Shown here: in pieces, positions 21,470 to 56,100 of the stretch | Layout: each line of letters begins with the position of its first letter | How positions within the stretch are numbered: the stretch's first letter is position 1 | Origin: Mobula hypostoma | Taxonomy: Eukaryota | DNA length: 64,000 nucleotides | Reading direction: 5' to 3' | Assembly (NCBI RefSeq): GCF_963921235.1 | Contig: NC_086108.1 | Span: 30,010,001-30,074,000, forward strand | Made by a program: the position numbers and the translations under genes | Notes under the pieces: generated by a model | Databases searched by the model: none | What the model was told of the DNA's origin: nothing | Seen by the model: the letters and a program-made list of their open reading frames with translations, nothing else

Positions 21470-24204
21470 TGTGTTTAAACTAAGTAGCAGGGGGGAGGGG
21501 ACGAACTGGAAATATAAGAATGGAGTTAAAGGGAAAGAGAGAATAAGAAAAGTTAAGAAAGACAACAGAATTAACGGGGCAGAAAGCTCAGGAAGGGATT
21601 GGAGAGTATGGCCAAGTGCAATAGGAATCGATGTGAAAGGTGAGGGGAGTAAAAGTATTACTTTAAAAGGATTAAAAGTATTATATATGAATGCACGGAG
21701 TGTAAGAAATAAAGTGGATGAGCTTGAGGCTCAGTTGGACATTGGCAAGTATGATGTTGTGGGAATAACAGAGACATGGCTGCAAGAGGACCAGGGCTGG
21801 GAAATGAATATTTAAGAATATACATCCTATCGAAAGGACAGACAGGTTGGCAGAGGGGGTGGGGTGGCTCTGTTGGTGAGGAATGAAATTCAGTCACTTG
21901 CGAGGGGGAACATAGAATCAGGAGATGTAGAGTCAGTATGGATAGAACTGAGAAACTGTAAGGGCAAAAAGACCCTGATGGCAGTTATCTACAGGCCCCC
22001 AAAGAGTAGCCTGGATATAGGGTGCAAGTTAAATCAAGAGTTAAAATTGGCATGTCACAAAGGTAATACTACGGTTGTTATGGGGGATTTCAACATGCAG
22101 GTAGACTGGGAAAATCAGGTTGGTACTGGACTCCAAGAAAGGGAATTTGTGGAATGCCTCAGAGATGGATTCTTAGAGCATCTTGTATTAGAGCCTACCA
22201 GGGAGAAGGCAATTCCGGATTTAGTGTTGTGTAATGAGCCAGATTTGATCAGGGAACTCGAGGTAAAGGAGCCATTAGAAGGTAGTGACCATAATATGAT
22301 AAGCTTTAATCTACAATTTGAGAGGGAGAAGGGAAGATCGGAAGTGTCAGTATTACAGTTGAATAAAGGGGACTACGGACCCATGAGGGAGGAGCTGGCC
22401 AAAGTTGACTGGAAGGATACCCTAGCAGGGATGACAGTGGAACAACAATGGCAGGTATTTCTGGGAATAATACAGAAGGTGCAGGATCAGTTCATTCCAA
22501 AGAGGAAGAAAGATTCTAAGGGGAGTAAGGGGCAACTGTGGATGACAAGGGAAGCCAAGGACAGTATAAAAATAAAAGAGAGGAAGTATAACATAGCAAG
22601 GATGAGTGGAAAGCCAGAGGATTGGGAGAATTTTAAGGAGCAACAGAAGATAACTAAAAAGGCAATACGGGGGGAAAAGATAAGGTACAAAGGTAAGCTA
22701 GCCAAGAATATGAAGGAGGATAGTAAAAGCTTCTTTAGGTTTGTGAAGAGGAAAAAAATTAGTTAAGACCAAAGTTGGGCCCTTGAAGACAGAAACGGGT
22801 GAAATTATTATGGGGAACAAGGAAATGGCAGACAAGCTGAACAGGTACTTCACTAGGGAAGACACAAACAATCTCCCAGATGTAATAGTGGCCAGAGGAC
22901 CTAGGGTAACAGAGGAACTGAAGGAAATTTGCATCAGGCAGAAAATGGTGTTGGGTAAACTGATGGGACTGGAGGCTGATAAATCCCCAGGGCCTGATGG
23001 TCTGCATCCCAGGGTACTTAAGAAGGTGGCTCTAGAAATCGTGAACACATTGGGAATCATTTTCCAATGTTCTATAGATTCAGGATCAGTTCCTGCGAAT
23101 TGGAGGGTAGCTAATGTTATCCCACTTTTTAAGAAAGGAGGGAGAGAGAAAACAGGCAATTATAGACCAGTTAGTCTGACATCAGTGGTGGGGAAGATGC
23201 TGGAATCAATTATAAAAGATGAAATAGCGGCATATTTGGATAGCAGTGGCAGGATAGATCCGAGTCAGCATGGATTTACGAAGGGGAAATCATGCTTGAC
23301 TAATCATCTGGAATTTTTTGAGAATGTAACTATAGAAATGGACATGGGAAAGCCAGTGGATGTAGTGTACCTGGACTTTCAGAAAGCTTTTGATAAGGTC
23401 CCACATAGGAGGTTAGTGTGCAAAATTAGAGCAAATGGTATTGGGGTAGGGTACTGACATGGATAGAAAATTGGTTGGCAGACAGGAAACAAAGAGTAGG
23501 GATTAATGGGTCCTTTTCAGAATGGCAGGCAGTGACTAGTGGGGTACCGCAAGGCTCGGTGCTGGGACCGCAGCTATTTACAATATACATTAATGATTTA
23601 AATGAAGGGATTAAAAGTAACATTAGCAAATTTGCAGATGACACAAAGCTGGGTGGCAGTGTGAAATGTGAGGAGGATGTTATGAGAATGCTGGGTGACT
23701 TGGACAGGTTGGGTGAGTGGGCAGATGCAGTTTAATGTGGATAAATGTGAGGTTATCCACTTTGGTGGCAAGAACAGGAAGGCAGATTACTATCTGAATG
23801 GTGTCAAGTTAGGAAAAGGGGAAGTACAATGAGATCTAGGTGTCCTTGTTCATCAGTCACTGAAAGTAAGCATGCGGGTACAGCAGGCAGTGAAGAAAGC
23901 TAATGGCATGTTGGCCTTCATAACAAGGGGAGTTGAATATAGGAGCAAAGAGGTCCTTCTGCGGTTGTACAGGGCCATGGTGAGACCACACCTGGAGTAT
24001 TGTGTACAGTTTCGTTCTCCAAATTTGAGGAAGGACATTCTAGCTATTGAGGGAGTGCAGCGTAGGTTCACGAAGTTAATTCCCAGGATGGCGGGACTGT
24101 CATATGTTGAAAGGTTGGAGCGGCTGGGTTTGTATACACTGGAATTTAGAAGGATGAGAGGGGATCTGCTTGAAACATATAAGATTATTAAGGGATTGGA
24201 CAGG
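21470..24204 (+). mobile_element. CR1 LINE ORF2, nearly complete (endonuclease + RT); 5' part, upstream of the LTR insertion
   Basis: 'YMNARS', 'GITETWL', 'GDFN', 'SDHN', 'KSPGPDG', 'YRPVSLTS', 'YLDFQKAFD', 'GVPQGSVLGP', 'FADDTK'; a few stops and frameshifts. Confidence 0.95.
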
Positions 24205-25063
24205 TGTGACGAGAATACACATAAAATTAAGATGTTTGCTGGCCTGGGTTAGCATCAGTGACATCAGCAAGTGGTCTGCCACCTGCCCTCAGGGGAAGGA
24301 GAGATAAGGAACAATGGAGTAGCGTCTGGAGATGTGTAATGAAGGGACGTGGGAGAGAGAGAGCTGTCTGGAGCGGCTCCCCCCCTTTGAACCCTGAACT
24401 GTTTGAAGTGATGGACAGGCGATACCCCAGCAGGGGGATAAAAAGGGACAGGTTCGCTAAGACAGACACACACGCCACCCGAGGTAACGAGACCCTGGAA
24501 GCGGTGCGCCTCTCACGAGTGGGTGAGAAGTATCAGACAACGACCAGGGTGGAAAGGTACGATCAGCGGGAACCCGGTGTGTGTCCGCCCTTGCCTGGGT
24601 GCCGGGTTCACTGCAGAGGATCGACCGCATCTGGAGGAGGGGGTCACAGTCGGTGACCTCAGGTGACATCACCAAGGACCCGCCCAAAAGCTGCTTGTGA
24701 GCCATCTCGCCGGTCTGTGAGTGAAGCAGTGTTCTGAATGATCAGTTGTTCCTGTTCTATCTCTCTCTTCCCCCACGTTGTCCATCGCCATGGCAACGAT
24801 TACTGCGAACTGAACTGGACTGAACTTTGAGTCATTTTGAAATTTGGTCATTTACCCCTAGACAACGATAGAGCTTGATTGATGCTGTTATCTTAATTCT
24901 GTGCACATGTGTGTTTATCATCGCTGAACTGTTGCATTTATTATCCTTTCAATTACTGTGTTGCTTGTTTCTTTAATAAAACTTCCTTAGTTCTAGTACT
25001 CCAGACTCCAACCGAGTGATCCATTTCTGCTGGTTTGGCAACCCAGTTACGGGGTACGTAACA
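24205..25063 (+). repeat. 5' LTR (859 bp)
   Basis: TGTGACGAG...CGTAACA; TATA-like GATAAAAA at 24437; AATAAA at 24975. Confidence 0.96.
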
Positions 25064-25067
25064 TAAG

Positions 25068-25086
25068 TGGGGTTCTCGTCCGCGAT
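25068..25086 (+). promoter_or_regulatory. Primer-binding site resembling tRNA-Pro (imperfect)
   Basis: TGGGGTTCTCGTCCGCGAT compared with the canonical Pro PBS TGGGGGCTCGTCCGGGAT; 4 nt after the LTR end. Confidence 0.75.
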
Positions 25087-25162
25087 TTTGAACGCTAAAT
25101 TTGGGACGGAGTAAATTGATTGGGTCAAAATTCCTGAAAGAAAGAAAAGACAAACAGCAGAA

Positions 25163-27946
25163 ATGGAGGTTGAGGAATTTATAAAGGCGCCGACCTTGGA
25201 GGCATTAGAGGATGCCAGGAAATCGGAATTGATAGCTGTGGCCAAACGGTTGAATCTTGCTAAGGTGAAGCCGACAATGAGGAGAGCAGAGATACACAGA
25301 GCTATTGTAGAGCACTATGTATCTAAAGGTGTGTTTCCCCAAGGTGAGCTGGGGGTGGTGTCTATTGAAAAACCTGCTGGAGACGCGGTACAGGTACAGC
25401 TTGAAAAACTGAGACTCGAGCACGAGTTCCGGGTACGGCAGTTAGAACACGAAGAGAAAGAGAGGGACAGACAGTTGAAGAGAGAGGAGAAACAGAGGGA
25501 AAGGGAATTCGAATTGGAGAAGTTAAGGTTAAGGGCAGAGCAGGGGCTTGTGCCGAACCAAGGTGGAGGGTTCCAGGCAACCCAGGAGGTTAGGCTGGTT
25601 CCCCCATTTGACGATACCGACGTGGATCGGTACTTTCTCCACTTCGAAAAAGTGGCTATAAGTCAGGACTGGCCGAGGGATAAGTGGGTTGTTTTACTTC
25701 AGAGTGTACTGAAAGGGAAGGCCCAAGAGGCTTACTCAGCTTTGTCCGCGGAAGATGCCCAGAGGTATGAGGTGGTGAAAGAGGCCATCCTCAGGATTTA
25801 TGAGTTGGTCCCGGAGGCATACCGGCAGAGGTTCCGGAATGCGAGGAAGCAGTGGGACCGCACGTATTTGGAGTTTGCTCGTGAGATGCAAACCTATTGT
25901 GAGCGTTGGTGCGCCTCGAAGCGGGTAGAGGGGGATTATGACAGACTGCTACAACTGATCCTGATTGAGCAGTTTAAAGGTTGTTTCCCTGAGGGTATGA
26001 GACCCTACCTCGATGAAAAAGAGGCAGCCACGTTTGCCGCAACTGCTAAGTTAGCGGATGAGTATGCGTTGACGCATAAAATGAAGTTTGCCCCGAGTAA
26101 AGGCTACCAGAAGGGTAGTCAGGACGGCGGGGAGAGTCCGCCGGAAAAGTCAGAAAGTAAGCCGGGGACTAGTGAAAAGGATAAGGTAGACCGGGAGCAG
26201 TCTGGTAGGAAGTCTCCTGGGGTCGTCTGTTATAATTGTGGGAAAGCCGGACACTTTGCGTCCAGGTGCTTTGCCCCAAGGAAGGAGACGGGGAAAGGAA
26301 AAGCGGAAATTTGGAATGGCTGTATCGAGCTGTTAAACGAACCGCTAGGGAAGGACAGGTCTGAAAAAGTCCAGGAAGGGCGCGAGAGGTTTATCTCGGC
26401 CGGACTGGTGTCAGTGAAGGAGAGGTTAAAACCAGTTCCAGTGCGGATCTGGAGAGACACGGGAGCGTGTCAGTCATTGATATTGAAGAGTGTATTAGAG
26501 TTTAGCTCAGAGACCCAGACTGGGGAGGTAGAGGTCAAAGGTGTTGGGAAAGGGACAGAGTCAGTCCCTTTGCACCAGATACATTTACAGAGTAACCTGG
26601 TCTCTGGACTAGTCACGATCGGGGTGAGGTCCGAATTACCGATGAAAGACGTGGAAGTCTTGCTCGGTAATGACATCGCCGGGGGAATCGTGTTCCCAGT
26701 CGTGAGATTGACGGGTCAGCCTGCCAGCATGGAGGCCCCGCCCGCGATGGTAAATTTAGCTGAAACATTTCTGCCAACCTTGTATGAGACAGGGTGTAGT
26801 GAGATAAGAGGTAGTGAGGGAGCTGGGACGGACGTAGCAGTAGCCAGGAAAGAATTTGTGCAGACGCAGGAGCGAGACGAGGGGCTGATGGTTTTTGCCG
26901 AGACCGCTCTCTCTGACACAGCCTTGACAAGCTACTGTGCGGAGGAGGAAGTGCTAAGGAAGAAAGGGAAATCAAGGACAGTATCCGCAGATGAGGAGTG
27001 GGGGGTGGTGCAAAAGAGTTATGGGGATGAGGTTTTTAACATGGCCCACGAGGTACCCCCCGGTGGACATTTTGCGGTGCTGGAGGAAACAGTTGGTGGA
27101 ATCATGAAAGAGATTTACCGGCTGCCCAGGGGGAAAAATGTTATTGATCATGACCGACGCGGACTGAGACGGTCACCGGCTTTTGATATGCTAACAAACC
27201 TAGTCGGTGTTAGCGTGGAAATCAATGAAGCTAGGGGCCCCCTGATAAGAGGAAAAAGCCATTTTGAAAAGATTAGGATGGGATCGGTCAGATGGGAGAA
27301 GGCTATTGTTTTGGCCAGGTCTACTGATAAGGTCTCTCCCTTAATCCCCGAACAAAGCGAATCTTTAGAAGGAGTAATTAAACGACTCGCACTCATGTGT
27401 TTGATTGTCCCGAGGAAATACAAAGAACTGGGACGTTGGGTGATTGTGGTTACAATAGGGCAGCCAAGTAAACAACACCCATATTTTTTGAGTAATGCAG
27501 TGACTAAAGGGCTGATGAACACAGAGGTGTGTATTGGCAATTTAATACGGCTGTCTGAAGCCAGTTTGATAGTGAACCTTGAAAAAAATGAATTCGGCCA
27601 CACGAGGGTCACTTACCTGGGAATTGTGGTGACACAGGAGCAGCTGGCAGCAATGCAAGCTACAGTGCAGACTATCGCTGACCTCCCAACCCCGACAGAC
27701 AAGAGGGCCCTCAGAAGGCTCTTGGAGATGGTGGGGTACTGCAGGAAGTTTTGCAATAACTCTGCGGTCAATACCCGTCCCCCTCCTACTAAGCCCTTGC
27801 GAGAGAAAACTGAGTCGGAATGGGACGACCCTTGTTATTGTGGTCCGGGAAAAAGCCAAATGAGAGGTTACATTGATCGCAATTCATCAGTGTTTTTGGC
27901 CACTATGAAGTTTGCTGAGTTGGAGCCTGGTCTAAGGGATTATTAA
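25163..27946 (+). CDS. gag-pol: 927-aa Gag (SCAN-like capsid, CCHC knuckle)-protease polyprotein fused to degenerate IN/RT/RNase H remnants
   Basis: 'YFLHFEKVA..W', 'YRQRFR...LILIEQF' capsid; CYNCGKAGHFASRC at 26228-26269; RDTGA at 26453-26467 and 'VLLGND'; IN 'AHEVPPGGHF' at ~27044-27073; RT 'KQHPY', 'EVCIGN' in place of YxDD, 'VTYLG', 'LRRLLEMVGYCRKF'. Confidence 0.9.
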   Translation: MEVEEFIKAPTLEALEDARKSELIAVAKRLNLAKVKPTMRRAEIHRAIVEHYVSKGVFPQGELGVVSIEKPAGDAVQVQLEKLRLEHEFRVRQLEHEEKERDRQLKREEKQREREFELEKLRLRAEQGLVPNQGGGFQATQEVRLVPPFDDTDVDRYFLHFEKVAISQDWPRDKWVVLLQSVLKGKAQEAYSALSAEDAQRYEVVKEAILRIYELVPEAYRQRFRNARKQWDRTYLEFAREMQTYCERWCASKRVEGDYDRLLQLILIEQFKGCFPEGMRPYLDEKEAATFAATAKLADEYALTHKMKFAPSKGYQKGSQDGGESPPEKSESKPGTSEKDKVDREQSGRKSPGVVCYNCGKAGHFASRCFAPRKETGKGKAEIWNGCIELLNEPLGKDRSEKVQEGRERFISAGLVSVKERLKPVPVRIWRDTGACQSLILKSVLEFSSETQTGEVEVKGVGKGTESVPLHQIHLQSNLVSGLVTIGVRSELPMKDVEVLLGNDIAGGIVFPVVRLTGQPASMEAPPAMVNLAETFLPTLYETGCSEIRGSEGAGTDVAVARKEFVQTQERDEGLMVFAETALSDTALTSYCAEEEVLRKKGKSRTVSADEEWGVVQKSYGDEVFNMAHEVPPGGHFAVLEETVGGIMKEIYRLPRGKNVIDHDRRGLRRSPAFDMLTNLVGVSVEINEARGPLIRGKSHFEKIRMGSVRWEKAIVLARSTDKVSPLIPEQSESLEGVIKRLALMCLIVPRKYKELGRWVIVVTIGQPSKQHPYFLSNAVTKGLMNTEVCIGNLIRLSEASLIVNLEKNEFGHTRVTYLGIVVTQEQLAAMQATVQTIADLPTPTDKRALRRLLEMVGYCRKFCNNSAVNTRPPPTKPLREKTESEWDDPCYCGPGKSQMRGYIDRNSSVFLATMKFAELEPGLRDY

Positions 27947-28107
27947 TAACACGTGTAAAAGGAACAGAAAATGTGATGACTGTCTGTCAAGGTGTTGACA
28001 GCTTCAAACTCGCTGTGTTTGCCAAATAGCTGATAAAGATGTATATTTGTGTATGTATCAAATAATGTATTCATGTTTGTAATTTTTACCTCCCGGTAAA
28101 AATCCTT

Positions 28108-28120
28108 AAAAGGGGGGAAG
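28108..28120 (+). promoter_or_regulatory. Polypurine tract
   Basis: AAAAGGGGGGAAG directly abutting the 3' LTR. Confidence 0.9.
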
Positions 28121-28988
28121 TGTGACGAGAATACACATAAAATTAAGATGTTTGCTGGCCTGGGTTAGCATCAGTGACATCAGCAAGTGGTCTGCCACCT
28201 GCCCTCAGGGGAAGGAGAGATAAGGAACAATGGAGCAGCGTCTGGAGATGTGTAATGAAGGGACGTGGGAGAGAGAGAGCTGTCTGGAGCGGCTCCCCCC
28301 CCCCTTTGAACCCTGAACTGTTTGAAGTGATGGACAGGCGATACCCCAGCAGGGGGATAAAAAGGGACAGGTTCGCTAAGACAGACACACACGCCACCCG
28401 AGGTAACGAGACCCTGGAAGCGGTGCGCCTCTCACGAGTGGGTGAGAAGTATCAGACAACGACCAGGGTGGAAAGGTACGATCAGCAGGAACCCGGTGTG
28501 TGTCCACCCTCGCTTGGGTGCCGGGTTCACTGCAGAGGATCGACCGCATCTGGAGGAGGGGTCACAGTCGGTGACCTCAGGTGACATCACCAAGGACCCG
28601 CCCAAAATCTGCTTGTGAGCCATCTCGCCGGTCTGTGAGTGAAGCTGTGCTGAATGATCAGTTGTTCCTGTTCTCTCTGTCTCTCTTCCCCCACCTTGTC
28701 CATCGCCATGGCAACGATTACTGCGAACTGAACTACAAACTGGACTGAACTTTGAGTCATTTTGAAATTTGGTCATTTACCCCTAGACAACGATAGAGCT
28801 TGATTGATGCTGTTATCTTAATTCTGTGCACATGTGTGTTTATCATTGCTGAACTGTTGCATTTATTATCCTTTCGATTACTGTGTTGCTTGTTTCTTTA
28901 ATAAAACTTCCTTAGTTCTAGTACTCCAGACTCCAACCGAGTGATCCATTTCTGCTGGTTTGGCAACCCAGTTACGGGGTACGTAACA
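28121..28988 (+). repeat. 3' LTR (868 bp)
   Basis: Near-identical to the 5' LTR (about a dozen substitutions and several small indels by eye); AATAAA at 28900. Confidence 0.96.
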
Positions 28989-29339
28989 CAGGCTAGAGGC
29001 AGGAAACATGTTCCCAATGTTGGGGGAGTCCACAACCAGAGGCCACAGTTTAAGAATAAGGGGTAGACAATCTAGAACGGAGTTGAGGAAAAACTTCTTC
29101 ACCCAGAGAGTTGTGGATCTGTGGATTGCTCTTCCTCAGAAGGCAGTGGAGACCAATTCTCTGGATTCTTTCAAGAAAGAGTTAGATAGAGCTCTTAAAG
29201 ATAGCGGAGTGAAGGGATATGGGGAGAAGGCAGGAAAAGGGTACTGATTGTGGATGATCAGCCATGATCACAGTGAATGGTGGTGCTGGCTCGAAGGGCT
29301 GAATGGCCTACTCCTGCACCTATTGTCTATTGTCTATTG
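28989..29339 (+). mobile_element. CR1 LINE 3' end, continuation of 21470-24204
   Basis: Removing the LTR element and one CAGG restores 'YKIIKGLDRLEAGNMFPMLGESTTRGHSL'; (CTATTGT)n tail. Confidence 0.95.
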
Positions 29340-50050: not shown

Positions 50051-51404
50051 GGTGCAGTGCTGCCGGAGCTCAGCGGAGAACCACTCCAGCATCTCTGTAA
50101 AAAAAAGTCAAAATAAACAAGCGGGGAATTTAACAGCGGCCGCATATTAAATTGAGGGAGTTTTACGGAAGCGGGGGTTGGGGAGAGGGGGTGGTGGCTG
50201 GTGGGGAAAATACCACTAATAACATTAGGATATTTGATCGTTTTTGGTGAAATCCTGGAGCTGTGACTGTTTTTTATTTAGGTATTTGTGAAATTCATCC
50301 TCACTCGACCCATTGTTTTCCCAGCATACCCTGCTGTAGCCTCCTGCCATTTTACAGATCCTCAGTCTCTCTCCAGCCAAGGGATGACTGTACACGAGCG
50401 TGAGCATTCTTCCGCTCTTTCCAACGGGTACCATTGGATTCCAGGTTGGAGCTATATTAAGCAAGGAATAAATATCAAAACCTAAGGTTAAAAGTCAAAA
50501 ATAATGAATGCAAAATTCACTGCTCGCTTATCTTCGGCCTGATTTTGATGAAATATTCAAGGTAATCATCCAAAGTCCTCTTCTACACCTGGATAAAGTG
50601 AATTTAGTTTTTTTTTTCACAAGCCAAATGGGAAAAAAATATTTCTAGACTATAAGCTAGTTTTACATCATTTCAACTATCATTAGTAGCGGATCAACCC
50701 CTTGGCCGAGCTCCACCAACTATAGTTGATTGGACAGAGGTCCTTTTTCTCTTAGTGTTGATAGGAAAAAGAATAATTTAGTGAGGCAATGAACGAGACG
50801 AAACTCATTTTTCAATCTTCCAAATGGTTCCTCTCCTCCCATTAACATTTGTCACTTCCAAAATACGATATTTTTTATTCGTATAGATACGATAATAAAT
50901 TATGTAAAGATTCAAGCTTCTTTAGCTTTTTATATATTTAAAGACTAAACAGGGTCTGTATTGGTCTGACCACGTAATACCCGACGTGGGAGGATATTGT
51001 GAGTATCGACACTCACAGGTACACTTCCTGTCCAACCATTTCCGTGAGAGAAATGGTACGAGGCAGAGTTGCCAACCTACCGCTTTTGTTACTAATATTC
51101 AGCAATATTCGTGGCTTTAGCAATAGTTTATTAGACATTCTTTTTTCACACTTGATTACAGGTGTCTCCCGCTTTTCGAATGTCCGCTTTACGAAACCTC
51201 ACTGTTGCGAAAGACCTACATTAGTTACCTGTTTTCACTAACAGAAGGTGTTTTCACTGTTACGAAAAAAAGCAGCGCGTGATAAATAGGCAGCGCAGGA
51301 AGAAAAAAGCAGCGTGCGCCCTGAGCAGCCGCTCTCCCCCGGATTCGGAATGGCATTCTTCCCGGTATTGCTTAAACACGTGCTTGTGAGCAGCCGTTAG
51401 CAAG

Positions 51405-52034
51405 ATGAGCTCTAAGGTATTGGAAAAGCCTGAAAGAGTTTGTAAGGGTGTTATACTTAGCATAAAACTAGACATAATTAAGCATTTCGATTGTGGTGAA
51501 CCAAGTAAGGAGAACGTGAGTTTGCTTGTGGAAGTTGACGAAGATGATATTGAAGAGGTTTTGGCATCTCATGACCAAGAACTGATAGATGAAGGGCTGA
51601 TGCAATTGGAAGAAGAAAGGATAACAATCAAAACCGAATGCAGTAGCAAACGGACCGAAAGTGAAGTCGTCCAGGAACTGAACGTGAAGCAGCTGCGTAA
51701 GATTTTCTCTGCAATGATAAAGTACGGCTTTAATTTTGAAAGGGTATGTCGGTTTAGGGTATATTTGCAGGATGGTTTGAGTGCTTACAAAGAACTGTAT
51801 GATCTAAAAATGTGCGAGGCTAAGCAGTCAAGCAAGCCTTCCACATCAGCCACAGCAGACGACGAACCTCGACCTTCGACATCGGGGCAGGCAGACATAG
51901 AAGAAGATGACCTGCCTGCCCTGATGGAAACAGATGACACCCCAATGTCCCGCCACCCCCACCCCCGGGCCACGGACAGATACCGATTCACGGAGAATGA
52001 AGCGGTAGCCGGGACGCACCCAGCACATCGTTAA
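51405..52034 (+). pseudogene. 209-aa in-frame fusion of Tigger transposase N- and C-termini, no DDE domain
   Basis: 'KGVILSIKLDIIKHF' (start of psq-type HTH) joined to 'EVDEDDIEEVLASHDQELIDEGLMQLEEE' (acidic C-terminal region). Confidence 0.7.
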
Positions 52035-53526
52035 GAAAAAAGCTGAAACAAACAAGCTAATTAATTAGGTGCTGCCTGGCACGTAAATGTCGGCCCAGAT
52101 CAGAGGCGGTTGCCGATTGCGTTGCCTCAGATTTGGGCCGACATTTACGTGCTGGGCGGCACCTAATTAATTAGCTTGTTTATTTCGGCTTTTTTTCTTA
52201 AAGATGTGCTGAGCGCATTCCAGCCACTGCTGTACCCCTGAATTCTTCGTGGATCAGTATCGGTCAGCGGCCTGGAGAGTGGGGGCCACTGCACCACCCC
52301 AACCTCCAACGACTCAGCCTAACACACCATCATCATGTGCTCGATGTCTTCCCAATTCCCGTAAGTGATACTACACTGTACATACATTATTTCTACTTTA
52401 TATCAGCTGTGTATTTTTAGGTGTTATTTGGTATGATTTGGCAGCTTCATAGCTTACAGGTTACTGGAGAGCACTTGCGCCGTGTTTTTGCCGTTGGCGC
52501 TTGCACCGTGTTTCTGCCGAGAGCGCTTGCGTGACATTTTCGCTACGGAGAACAGTGCAGCAATGATTGTGGAGAAGTATTTCTACTTTATATAGGCTGT
52601 GTATTTATCATATCATTCCTGCTTTTACTATATGTTAGTGTTATTTTAGGTTTTACGTGTTATTTGGCTTGATTTGGTAGGTTATTTTTGGGTCTGCGAA
52701 CGCTCACAAACTTTTCGCATATAAATTAATGGTAATTGCTTCTTCGCTTTAGAAACATAGAAACATAGAAAATAGGGGCAGGAGTAGGACATTCAGCCCT
52801 TGAGCCTGCACCGCCATTCAGTATGATCATGGCTGATCATCCAACTCAGAACCCTGTACCACCCTTCCCTCCATACCCCCTGATCCCTTTAGCCACAAGG
52901 GCCATATCTAACTCCCTCTTAAATATAGCCAATGAACTGGCCTCAACTGTTTCCTGTGGCAGAGAATTCCACAGATTCACCACTCTCTGTGTGAAGAAGT
53001 TTTTCCTAATCTTGGTCCTAAAAGGCTTCCTCTTTATCCTCAAACTGTGACCCCTCGTTCTGGACTTCCCCAACATCGGGAACAATCTTTCTGCATCTAG
53101 CCTGTCCAATCCCTTTAGGATTTTATACGTTTCAATCAGATCCTCCCTCAATCTTCTAAATTCCAACGAGTATAAGCCTAGTTCATCCAGTCTTTCATCA
53201 TATGAAAGTCCTGCCATCCCAGGAATCAATCTGGTGAACCTTCTTCGTACTCCTTCCATGGAAAGGATGTCTTTCCTCAGATTAGGAGACCAAAACTGCA
53301 CACAATACTCCAGGTGTGGTCTCACCAAGGCCTTGTACAACTGCAGTAGTACCTCCCTGCTCCTGTACTTGAATCCTCTTACTATAAATGCCAGCATACC
53401 ATTCGCCTTTTTCACCGCCTGCTGTACCTGCATGCCCACTTTCAATGACTGGTGTATAATGACACCCAGGTCTCGTTGCACCTCCCCTTTTCCTAATCGG
53501 CCAGCATTCAGATAATAATCTGTTTT

Positions 53527-54055
53527 AGCAACACACATCAAAGTTGCCGGTGAATGCAGCAGGCCAGGCAGCATCTCTAGGAAGAGGTACAGTCGACGTT
53601 TCAGGCCGAGACCCTTCGTCAGGACTAACTGAAGGAAGAGTGAGCAAGAGATTTGAAAGTTGGAGGGGGAGGGGGAGATCCAACATGATAGGAGAAGACA
53701 GGAGGGGGAGGGATGGAGCCAAGAGCTGGACAGGTGATTGGCAAAAGGGATACGAGAGGATCATGGGACAGGAGGTCCTGGAAGAAAGACAAGGGGTGGG
53801 GGGAACCCAGAGGATGGGCAAGGGGTATATTCAGAGGGACAGAGGGAGAAAAAGGAGAGTGAGAGAAAGAATGTGTGTATAAAAATAAATAACAGATGGG
53901 GTACGAGGGGGAGGTGGGGCATTAGTAGAAGTTAGAGAAGTCGACGTTCATGTTATCAGGTTGGAGGCTACCCAGACGGAATATAAGGTGTTGTTCCTCT
54001 AACCTGAGTGTGGCTTCATCTTTACAGTAGGGGAGGCCGTGGATAGTCATGTCAG
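53527..54055 (-). mobile_element. Penelope-like 3' fragment (GIY-YIG C-terminus + tail) inside the CR1
   Basis: Closely similar to 3976-4502. Confidence 0.88.
53591..53626 (-). ncRNA. Minimal type-I hammerhead ribozyme motif, intact core
   Basis: Reverse complement: AGTC-CTGACGA-A-GGG(TCTCGG)CCT-GAAA-C-GTC-GACT. Confidence 0.72.
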
Positions 54056-54605: not shown

Positions 54606-56100
54606 ATCTGAAATCCTGTCTGCCCACTACCCTGGACCCCCGTCAATTTGCCTACCACACCAACAGGTCAACAGAGGACGCCATCTCCACGGCACTTCAC
54701 TCTGCCCTGACCCACCTGGACAGCCCCAACTCTTACGTCAGAATGCTGTTCATTGACTTTAGTTTGGCATTCAATAGTCATAGTTATAGTCATAGTCATA
54801 CTTTATTGATCCCAGGGGAAATTGGTTTTCGTTACAGTTGCACCATAAATAATAAATAGTAATAGAATCATGAATAGTTAGATAGTAATATGTAAATTAT
54901 GCCAGTAAATTATGAAATAAGTCCAGGACCAGCCTATTGGCTCAGGGTGTCTGACCCTCCAAGGGAGGAGTTGTAAAGTTTGATGGCAATACCGTGAAAT
55001 CCTCCAAGCTGATTGCCAAACTTCGCCAGCTTAATATCAGCTCATCCCTCTGCAATTGGACCTTGGACTTTCTAACTAACAGACCCCAATCTGTTAAATT
55101 AGACAACCTCTCCTCCATTCTCACACTGAATACTAATGCACCTCAAGGCTGTGTGCTGAGCCCTCTTCTGTATTCCCTTTTCACCTATGACTGCGTTGCT
55201 ATACATGGTTCTAACTCCATAATCAAGTTCGCAGATGACACTACGGTGTTTGTCCTGATCAGAGGGGATGACGAGATGGCCTACAGGGACGAGGTCCAGC
55301 ACCTGGCCACGTGGTGCGCCGATAACAGCCTGGCCTTTAACACCCAGAAGACCAGGGAGATTATTGTGGACTTCAGACATGCTAGGAGCCACACTCATGT
55401 CCCCATCTACATCAATGGAGTTGTAGTGGAGTGTGTATCAAGCTTCAAATTCCTTGGTGTCCACATTTCTGATGATCTCACCTGGTCCCTGAACTCCTCC
55501 ATCCTGATCAAAAAGGCGCAACAGTGCCTTTACTTCCTGTGGAGCATCAAGAAAGCTCACCTTTGACCCAGGATACTGACGGACTTTTACCGCTGTACCA
55601 CTGGGAGCATACTCACCAACTGCATCTCAGTGTGGTATGGCAATTGTCCCATATCAGACCACAAAGCACTCCAGCGTGTGATGAAAACTGCCCAGCGGAT
55701 TATCGGCAGCCAATTGCCCACCATTGAGAACATCTACCATAAATGCTGCCTGGGCAGGGCGAAAAGCATTATCAGGGATGCATCTCACCTTTTACGCTCC
55801 TACCATGCGGTAGGTGCTACAAGAGCCTCCGCTTCCACACCAGCAGGCTCAGGAAGAGCTTCTTCTCTGAGGCTGTGACCCTGTTGAACCTCACATCACA
55901 GCACTAAGCAGTATTGCACCCATATTGGACTGTCTCAGTACTTTTATATTTGTATGCTGTAGCACTTACTTTTTATTCGCAGTTATTTTGTAAATAACAT
56001 TATTCTTTTGCACTTCTGGTCAGATGCTAATTGCATTTCATTGGCTTTGTATCTGTATTCGGCACAATGACAATAAAGTTGAATCTAATCTAATCTAATT
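54606..56100 (+). mobile_element. Rex1/Babar-like LINE (RT to 3' end) with a small antisense LINE-tail insertion at ~54776-54990
   Basis: 'RSTEDAIS', '[16 protein letters not shown]', 'KFADDTTV', 'FKFLGV'; (CTAAT)n tail. Confidence 0.87.

Follow-up and report, generated by a model that had tools for sequence, protein, structure and literature searches.

A non-autonomous Gmr1-type LTR retrotransposon family in Mobula whose dead pol tail drifts in sequence within a probably selected reading frame

Among vertebrates, MaLR and zebrafish Bhikhari are non-autonomous LTR elements whose single ORF is Gag-like; they belong to other lineages and are not known to carry a protease or colinear pol remnant. 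MaLR is also named as non-autonomous in the accessible text of PMC6466679. The nearest precedent for a defective element with an open gag-pol frame is mouse IAP 1Δ1, which available sections of PMC6466679 and PMC7411935 describe as a non-autonomous, deletion-derived and highly successful element, with an open gag-pol fusion ORF acting in cis and a need for Gag and Pol in trans. IAP 1Δ1 arose through a single 1.9-kb deletion in which part of gag was lost, and Gag is supplied in trans. In plants, eight sugar-beet families are described as keeping GAG/PROT together with a decayed POL domain, and are called semi-autonomous (PMC13570524, accessible part). Gmr1-like elements are reported to carry integrase before RT (PMC3587641, in part), and the SCAN domain is reported to derive from the Gmr1 capsid (PMC4592553, in part).

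The element described here, on the forward strand of a 64-kb stretch of Mobula hypostoma DNA (the window), shares with Gmr1-like Ty3/Gypsy elements a SCAN-type capsid, a single gag-pol ORF and an integrase upstream of RT, and the LTRs, PBS-like stretch, PPT and short TSD of that group are all present. It differs in that its family is without rve, RVT_1 and an RNase H domain, and is non-autonomous. Like IAP 1Δ1 it is non-autonomous and deletion-derived with one open gag-pol fusion ORF, but IAP 1Δ1 is a betaretrovirus-like ERV, whereas the Mobula family is Ty3/Gypsy, keeps the whole of Gag-PR, lost its pol centres in many steps, and has a tail that drifts at the amino-acid level. The original prediction had likened the element to plant TR-GAG. 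That likeness stands functionally, as in TR-GAG and the beet families GAG (and protease) is kept and working enzymes are absent; however, TR-GAG proper has no pol remnant while the Mobula family has one of 402 aa, colinear, so it is not TR-GAG, and IAP 1Δ1 is the closer precedent for an in-frame gag-pol remnant. The beet families are set apart by their description, the accessible part of which makes no mention of one open frame through the remnant, of a graded series or of frame selection (PMC13570524). Our literature search turned up no account of this Mobula family, nor of selection for the frame alone in a non-autonomous LTR element; the family may have an entry in Repbase or Dfam.

The LTRs, TSD, PBS-like stretch and purine tract named in the original prediction are all in place (Table 1). 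Both LTRs have TG..CA ends, and the near-identity claimed for them was borne out: the pair differs by 7 transitions and 4 transversions (11 substitutions) and by 5 indel events over 856 aligned bases (K2P 0.013). At a rate near 1e-9 per site per year, which is an assumption of our analysis, the insertion would date back a few million years. The stretch directly behind the 5′ LTR may be a tRNA-Pro PBS, which it resembles with one extra base and mismatches; no tRNA gene was found in the 64-kb window. The flanks are adjacent pieces of one LINE, which we take to be CR1, and match another CR1-type copy in the window back to back. Elsewhere in the window, 52795-53760 (−) is presumably another CR1-type copy, 54955-55566 (+) a LINE RT fragment of another kind, and 51390-52034 (+) holds a 214-codon open frame that we take to be a DNA-transposon remnant. 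Neither a second piece of the element nor a helper was found inside the 64-kb window.

Table 1. Features of the element (24205-28988, + strand) and its insertion site, in window positions.
Feature	Position	Strand	Basis or remark
Interrupted LINE (presumably CR1-type), upstream part	21816..24204	+	resumes at 28989-29250
Left TSD CAGG	24201..24204	+	flank comparison
5′ LTR, 859 bp	24205..25063	+	LTR alignment
PBS-like stretch directly 3′ of 5′ LTR	25064..25087	+	sequence inspection
Single ORF, 927 aa (P0001): Gag-PR-dead pol tail	25163..27946	+	ORF translation
Capsid C-terminal / SCAN domain, aa 217-306	25811..26080	+	Pfam, E 8.6e-13
CCHC zinc knuckle (zf-CCHC), aa 355-369	26225..26269	+	Pfam, E 1.4e-5
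Aspartic protease, about aa 408-515	26384..26707	+	alignment to full-length relatives; 25/29 conserved columns kept
Integrase N-terminal remnant, aa 561-666	26843..27160	+	HH at 629 and 636 kept
End of integrase C-terminal part, linker, RT start, aa 667-774	27161..27484	+	P0143 vs P0044; stops at second large deletion
RT palm C-half and thumb remnant, aa 775-891	27485..27835	+	CIGN replaces YxDD, then 18-aa deletion
RNase H remnant and stop, aa 892-927	27836..27946	+	few RNase H residues kept
Polypurine tract	28108..28120	+	sequence inspection, upstream of 3′ LTR
3′ LTR, 868 bp	28121..28988	+	AATAAA at 28900
Right TSD CAGG	28989..28992	+	flank comparison

The single ORF (P0001) is stop-free, and its Gag, CCHC knuckle and DTG protease are intact, as had been claimed. 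The proposed HMMER-type domain check returned SCAN and zf-CCHC only from a Pfam scan of the 927-aa ORF, and no pol family. The protease DTG was placed at aa 432-434 (26456-26464) by alignment to full-length relatives. Gag is complete, and the capsid retains the majority residue at 51 of 56 conserved columns. Capsid identity to autonomous P0044 is 58%, compared with 56-62% for the autonomous-type relatives P0029, P0049 and P0040, and protease identity is 54%, compared with 48-62% for autonomous-type batoid relatives, so that both domains are as close to P0044 as the autonomous-type batoid relatives are. A charged coiled-coil repeat in Gag (window 25450-25490, aa ~95-115) gains or loses whole units from copy to copy, for a difference of up to about 80 aa, and its length changes are in frame in every protein seen. 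In a local RNA folding scan of the internal region (34 windows, 30 shuffles each), the strongest signal lay within gag at 25500-25649 (z −3.9), a candidate packaging signal, and no 150-nt window of the pol tail fell below z −2.0. An AlphaFold model of P0001 from a 20-row family alignment was uninformative (mean pLDDT 34, with capsid and protease too under 50).

The last 402 aa (aa 526-927) form, by comparison with full-length relatives, a colinear pol remnant in the Gmr1-like order IN (561-~700), RT (775-891) and RH (892-927). That order is intact in P0040 and P0044 (SCAN, IN, RT, RH), and the intermediate P0143, from Mobula birostris, has Integrase_H2C2 followed by RVT_1. With the junctions fixed by means of P0143, three large deletions relative to P0044 were found, of about 288, 128 and 87 aa, together with about ten small indels. 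The first runs from the first zinc-finger cysteine to the end of the integrase C-terminal part; the zinc-finger CxxC is gone at its junction, and the rve core with its D,D,E is absent. The second removes the RT N-half between two RM dipeptides, and the third, inside RNase H, removes most of that domain; two of the three join short repeated amino-acid pairs (RR, RM). CIGN (aa 790-793, 27530-27541) aligns with YIDD of the full-length relatives, and in a PDB search aa 794-873 weakly matched Ty3 RT (E 1e-4). Further small indels toward the window copy lie at about 527 (two steps), 544, 589, 615, 640, 677, 763, 869 and 916. At least 13 lineage indels 3′ of the protease are all in frame, and the frame is broken only at the extreme end, where the final ~19 codons of the ancestral sequence follow the ORF stop directly, in a different frame. 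Judging by these alignments, every pol catalytic centre has been lost by in-frame deletions; an intact DDE integrase, YxDD RT and RNase H, the marks of autonomy, are all missing from P0001. The residue-level reading in the original prediction (only the zinc-finger HH, no DDE, CIGN for YxDD, a few RNase H residues) agrees with the alignment to full-length relatives. Its colinear patchwork is right as to the order IN-RT-RH but not as a fine mosaic, since the shrinkage is mostly the three large deletions with about ten small indels. Some contigs from public reads carry further tail deletions at 26895-26941 and 27314-27364, with net losses of 42 nt (runs X1 and X9) and 45 nt (X1), each divisible by three.

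Homologue searches and a cluster look-up returned Mobula proteins at 76-97% identity. Eleven of the 26 family proteins whose ends were compared, from M. hypostoma and M. birostris and on contigs of many different lengths, end at the same residue as the window ORF; five of these are open from the Gag start and six begin at an internal Met. The remaining 15 end earlier, the state of pol being known for all of these but P0007, P0010, P0026 and P0027, and most breaks are unique to one copy. P0004 and P0005 share an early ending at about codon 825-838, and P0006 and P0144 a break near codon 700; to judge from these shared endings, some frameshifted forms may have spread or recurred. Four public runs were mapped on 24900-28200 and gave cover in 30, 30, 30 and 29 of 30 bins, with all tail bins covered in X1, X9 and X5. 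Contigs leaving at the LTR 3′ end numbered 151 (X1) and 126 (X9), with 36% agreement and hence diverse flanks, contig depth not being equal to copy number. In X5 and X19, contigs among those listed run straight across the integrase junction with no gap. Three organism codes are represented among the runs, one each for X1/X5, X9 and X19, and X5 is taken as RNA by guess only. When the tail was searched against 1.84 billion 50%-cluster representatives, only two proteins fell below 1e-30, both Mobula family members, and these representatives gave no sign of a P0001-type tail over its length outside the family. The same junctions and the same C-terminus recur at many loci in M. hypostoma and M. birostris, so it was the degenerate form that spread, as the original prediction held, and its deletions are not unique to the window copy. 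We are highly confident that the defective form exists as a multi-copy, dispersed non-autonomous family. Family ORFs P0002, P0016, P0021 and P0027 are annotated as isoform X1 of host genes (MACC1, UBE2G2, PPM1Lb, PISD), which suggests intronic insertions capturing transcripts, or gene-model errors.

The relatives form a graded series, from P0032 through P0143, P0141/P0142, P0139/P0140 and P0005 to P0001. In the RT motif, P0143 has YIGD and keeps the next 18 residues, P0141 and P0142 have CIGD without the 18, and P0139, P0140, P0005 and P0001 have CIGN. Identity of the integrase N-part to P0044 falls from 69% (P0040) to 52% (P0032), 44% (P0143), 39% (P0141), 34% (P0005) and 32% (P0001); for the RT piece it is 72% in P0040 and 50% in P0001. 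Trees of Gag-PR and of two tail pieces, built from the fetched relatives alone with no named Gmr1 reference element among them, are ladder-like (midpoint root; several weak forks among young copies), as would be seen for a succession of masters. The path length from the P0032 node is 0.22 for Gag-PR and 0.51 for the integrase piece, P0032's own branch being 0.14 and 0.07.

A second Gag-PR family was seen in stingrays, in Hemitrygon akajei (P0033, P0034, P0030), in Hypanus sabinus (P0035, P0038, P0039, P0041, P0045) and in an ENA entry (P0036). After the protease, its ORF has a diverged duplicate of the Gag C-terminal region in place of pol. P0033 and P0035, from two genera, have the same kind of ending and group with P0039 and P0036 in a clade of their own that has good support. 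The stingray proteins may represent a non-autonomous family of independent origin whose tail is filler.

Selection on the protein was measured from read variants. The best-supported 40 of 250 variant rows, a choice made by the tool, gave a small sample of 36 classed sites in the ORF after 4 outside it were dropped; Gag-PR had 5 N:15 S compared with 13 N:3 S in the tail (Fisher p=0.002). Without window-private sites the contrast remained (2:9 vs 9:3, p=0.012). Rough dN/dS was 0.10-0.14 for Gag-PR and 1.3-1.8 for the tail; a test for excess silent changes in the tail gave p=0.90, in keeping with neutrality. Purifying selection acts on Gag-PR, and tail residues look neutral in the read variants.

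The main rival to a frame kept for its own sake is that the tail acts as a protein with loose sequence needs, in a Gag-PR-tail fusion working in cis like IAP 1Δ1, through particle geometry or through binding of helper Gag-Pol by the RT thumb. IAP 1Δ1 is itself a precedent, as far as the accessible text of PMC6466679 goes, and the RT thumb is the best-kept piece, with its match to Ty3 RT and 26 of 39 conserved columns kept by P0001 in RT, compared with 16 of 32 in IN. Relative to P0143, changes at conserved columns of the RT piece stood at 31% against 48% (p=0.11), a weak and non-significant shortage that leaves room for residual protein constraint. However, conserved columns are not significantly spared in either the IN or the RT piece, the tail variants run at 13 N to 3 S, and the ending common to P0004 and P0005 removes the thumb. 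A protein role of this kind is unlikely, in our estimate. The suggestion in the original prediction that the tail recruits helper Pol fares poorly, as a function that depends on the tail's sequence is hard to square with a dN/dS at or above 1.

The frame itself was a different matter. The two alternative sense frames of the tail contain 32 and 33 stops, its own frame none. Since the split from P0143, branch lengths add up to 0.32-0.39, and a neutral simulation with the observed mutation spectrum gave 3.8 stops at 20% amino-acid change (P(none) 0.018) and 6.0 at 30% (P(none)=0.003), where none was observed. At one in three, the chance of 13 of 14 indels being in frame is about 6e-6, although some in-frame indels could be compensated frameshift pairs. 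Among the indels listed, non-triplet changes fall at a single site within the 1206-nt tail and at 4 sites in the 174 nt that follow the stop (p=0.001), a contrast inflated by the AT-rich, indel-prone character of the 174-nt stretch. Luck with ascertainment would explain these numbers if a few masters had chanced on in-frame deletions and the window had been chosen for its long ORF. The ladder-like trees do point to few masters, the database proteins are gene models and hence a sample biased to open frames, and the RR and RM repeats at two large deletions can favour in-frame joins. This reading is already strained, and improbable, in the face of at least 13 in-frame indels, of about 6 stops expected and none seen, and of an identical open end shared by older and younger subfamilies. 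Selection on the frame stands on the subfamily-wide indels that stay in frame, despite the tail dN/dS; we thus consider it highly likely that the reading frame is selected, more than the tail's protein sequence. The original prediction, which had the ORF under selection, is upheld for Gag-PR and for a frame open beyond chance, but not for the tail sequence. It had named a dN/dS near 1 and frequent stops and frameshifts in the pol remnant as evidence against itself; the tail dN/dS is indeed at or above 1, but the subfamily-wide indels are in frame.

Less probable again is selection on the host side, by which expressed Gag-PR copies would be kept as dominant-negative restriction factors or co-opted genes, with the copy number left from earlier spread. 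Many copies are annotated as genes or host-gene isoforms, and X5, if RNA, holds the whole stretch; against this, the copies are dispersed with young LTRs and a TSD, over half of the proteins carry breaks of their own, the pattern that decay after insertion would produce, and no single conserved locus was shown. A single decayed autonomous insertion, for which nothing speaks beyond the look of one copy, is refuted by a tail about 50-68% diverged from autonomous relatives vs 1.3% between the LTRs, and by identical junctions at many loci.

The account we prefer, that of a non-autonomous Gmr1-type family with Gag-PR selected and the tail kept open for an RNA-level cause, is one we hold as a whole with moderate confidence. 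Each copy would translate Gag-PR and package its own RNA in cis, which would explain why Gag-PR stays selected. An autonomous Gmr1-type element whose products co-assemble in the particle would supply RT, RNase H and integrase in trans. No helper was identified among the fetched relatives or in the window; P0032 (M. birostris) and P0029 (Hypanus) are of autonomous type but truncated gene models. Contigs of X5 leave the window sequence at 27767 and 27910, sites of small indels relative to autonomous relatives, which hints at a close, less deleted relative.

Under the preferred account, the open tail might keep the stop codon near the poly(A) site and so avoid nonsense-mediated decay (NMD). The ORF stop lies about 950 nt upstream of the AATAAA, and an early stop in this single-ORF design would lengthen the 3′ UTR from about 0.95 kb to about 2.2 kb. 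A long 3′ UTR after gag is reported to expose retroviral RNA to NMD when no stability element is there to protect it (PMC2925335, in part). A single-ORF Gmr1-type element would never have needed a stability element, so that a derivative with dead pol would have to translate through pol or delete it in frame. Early-stop and frameshift mutants would lose their RNA to NMD or a related translation-coupled control and found no subfamilies, whereas in-frame deletions and changes near the extreme end would be tolerated, and pol would shrink by a ratchet. Effects of UPF1 on L1 are described as mixed (PMC4982230, accessible part), so NMD need not simply restrict retroelements. In its strictest form, frame-only retention would mean that ~1.2 kb of dead pol was kept translatable through many successive masters purely for its reading frame, via mRNA surveillance, and the stingray filler-tail family may show the same rule independently; this we put forward tentatively, as somewhat short of probable.

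The family offers a natural system that separates selection on the reading frame from selection on the protein, and a stepwise record of the origin of a Gag-keeping non-autonomous family in a vertebrate. In Mobula RefSeq the copies are annotated as uncharacterised genes or host-gene isoforms and Pfam detects no pol in them, so TE screens that rely on RT would overlook them. Should NMD or translation-coupled packaging be the cause, it would explain why single-ORF LTR parasites cannot stop after the protease, and would predict where stops are tolerated. What is surprising is a drifting sequence set against a guarded frame, with the intermediates preserved. If frame-only retention is true, ray genomes would hold, with all its intermediates, a datable record of mRNA surveillance steering transposon evolution.
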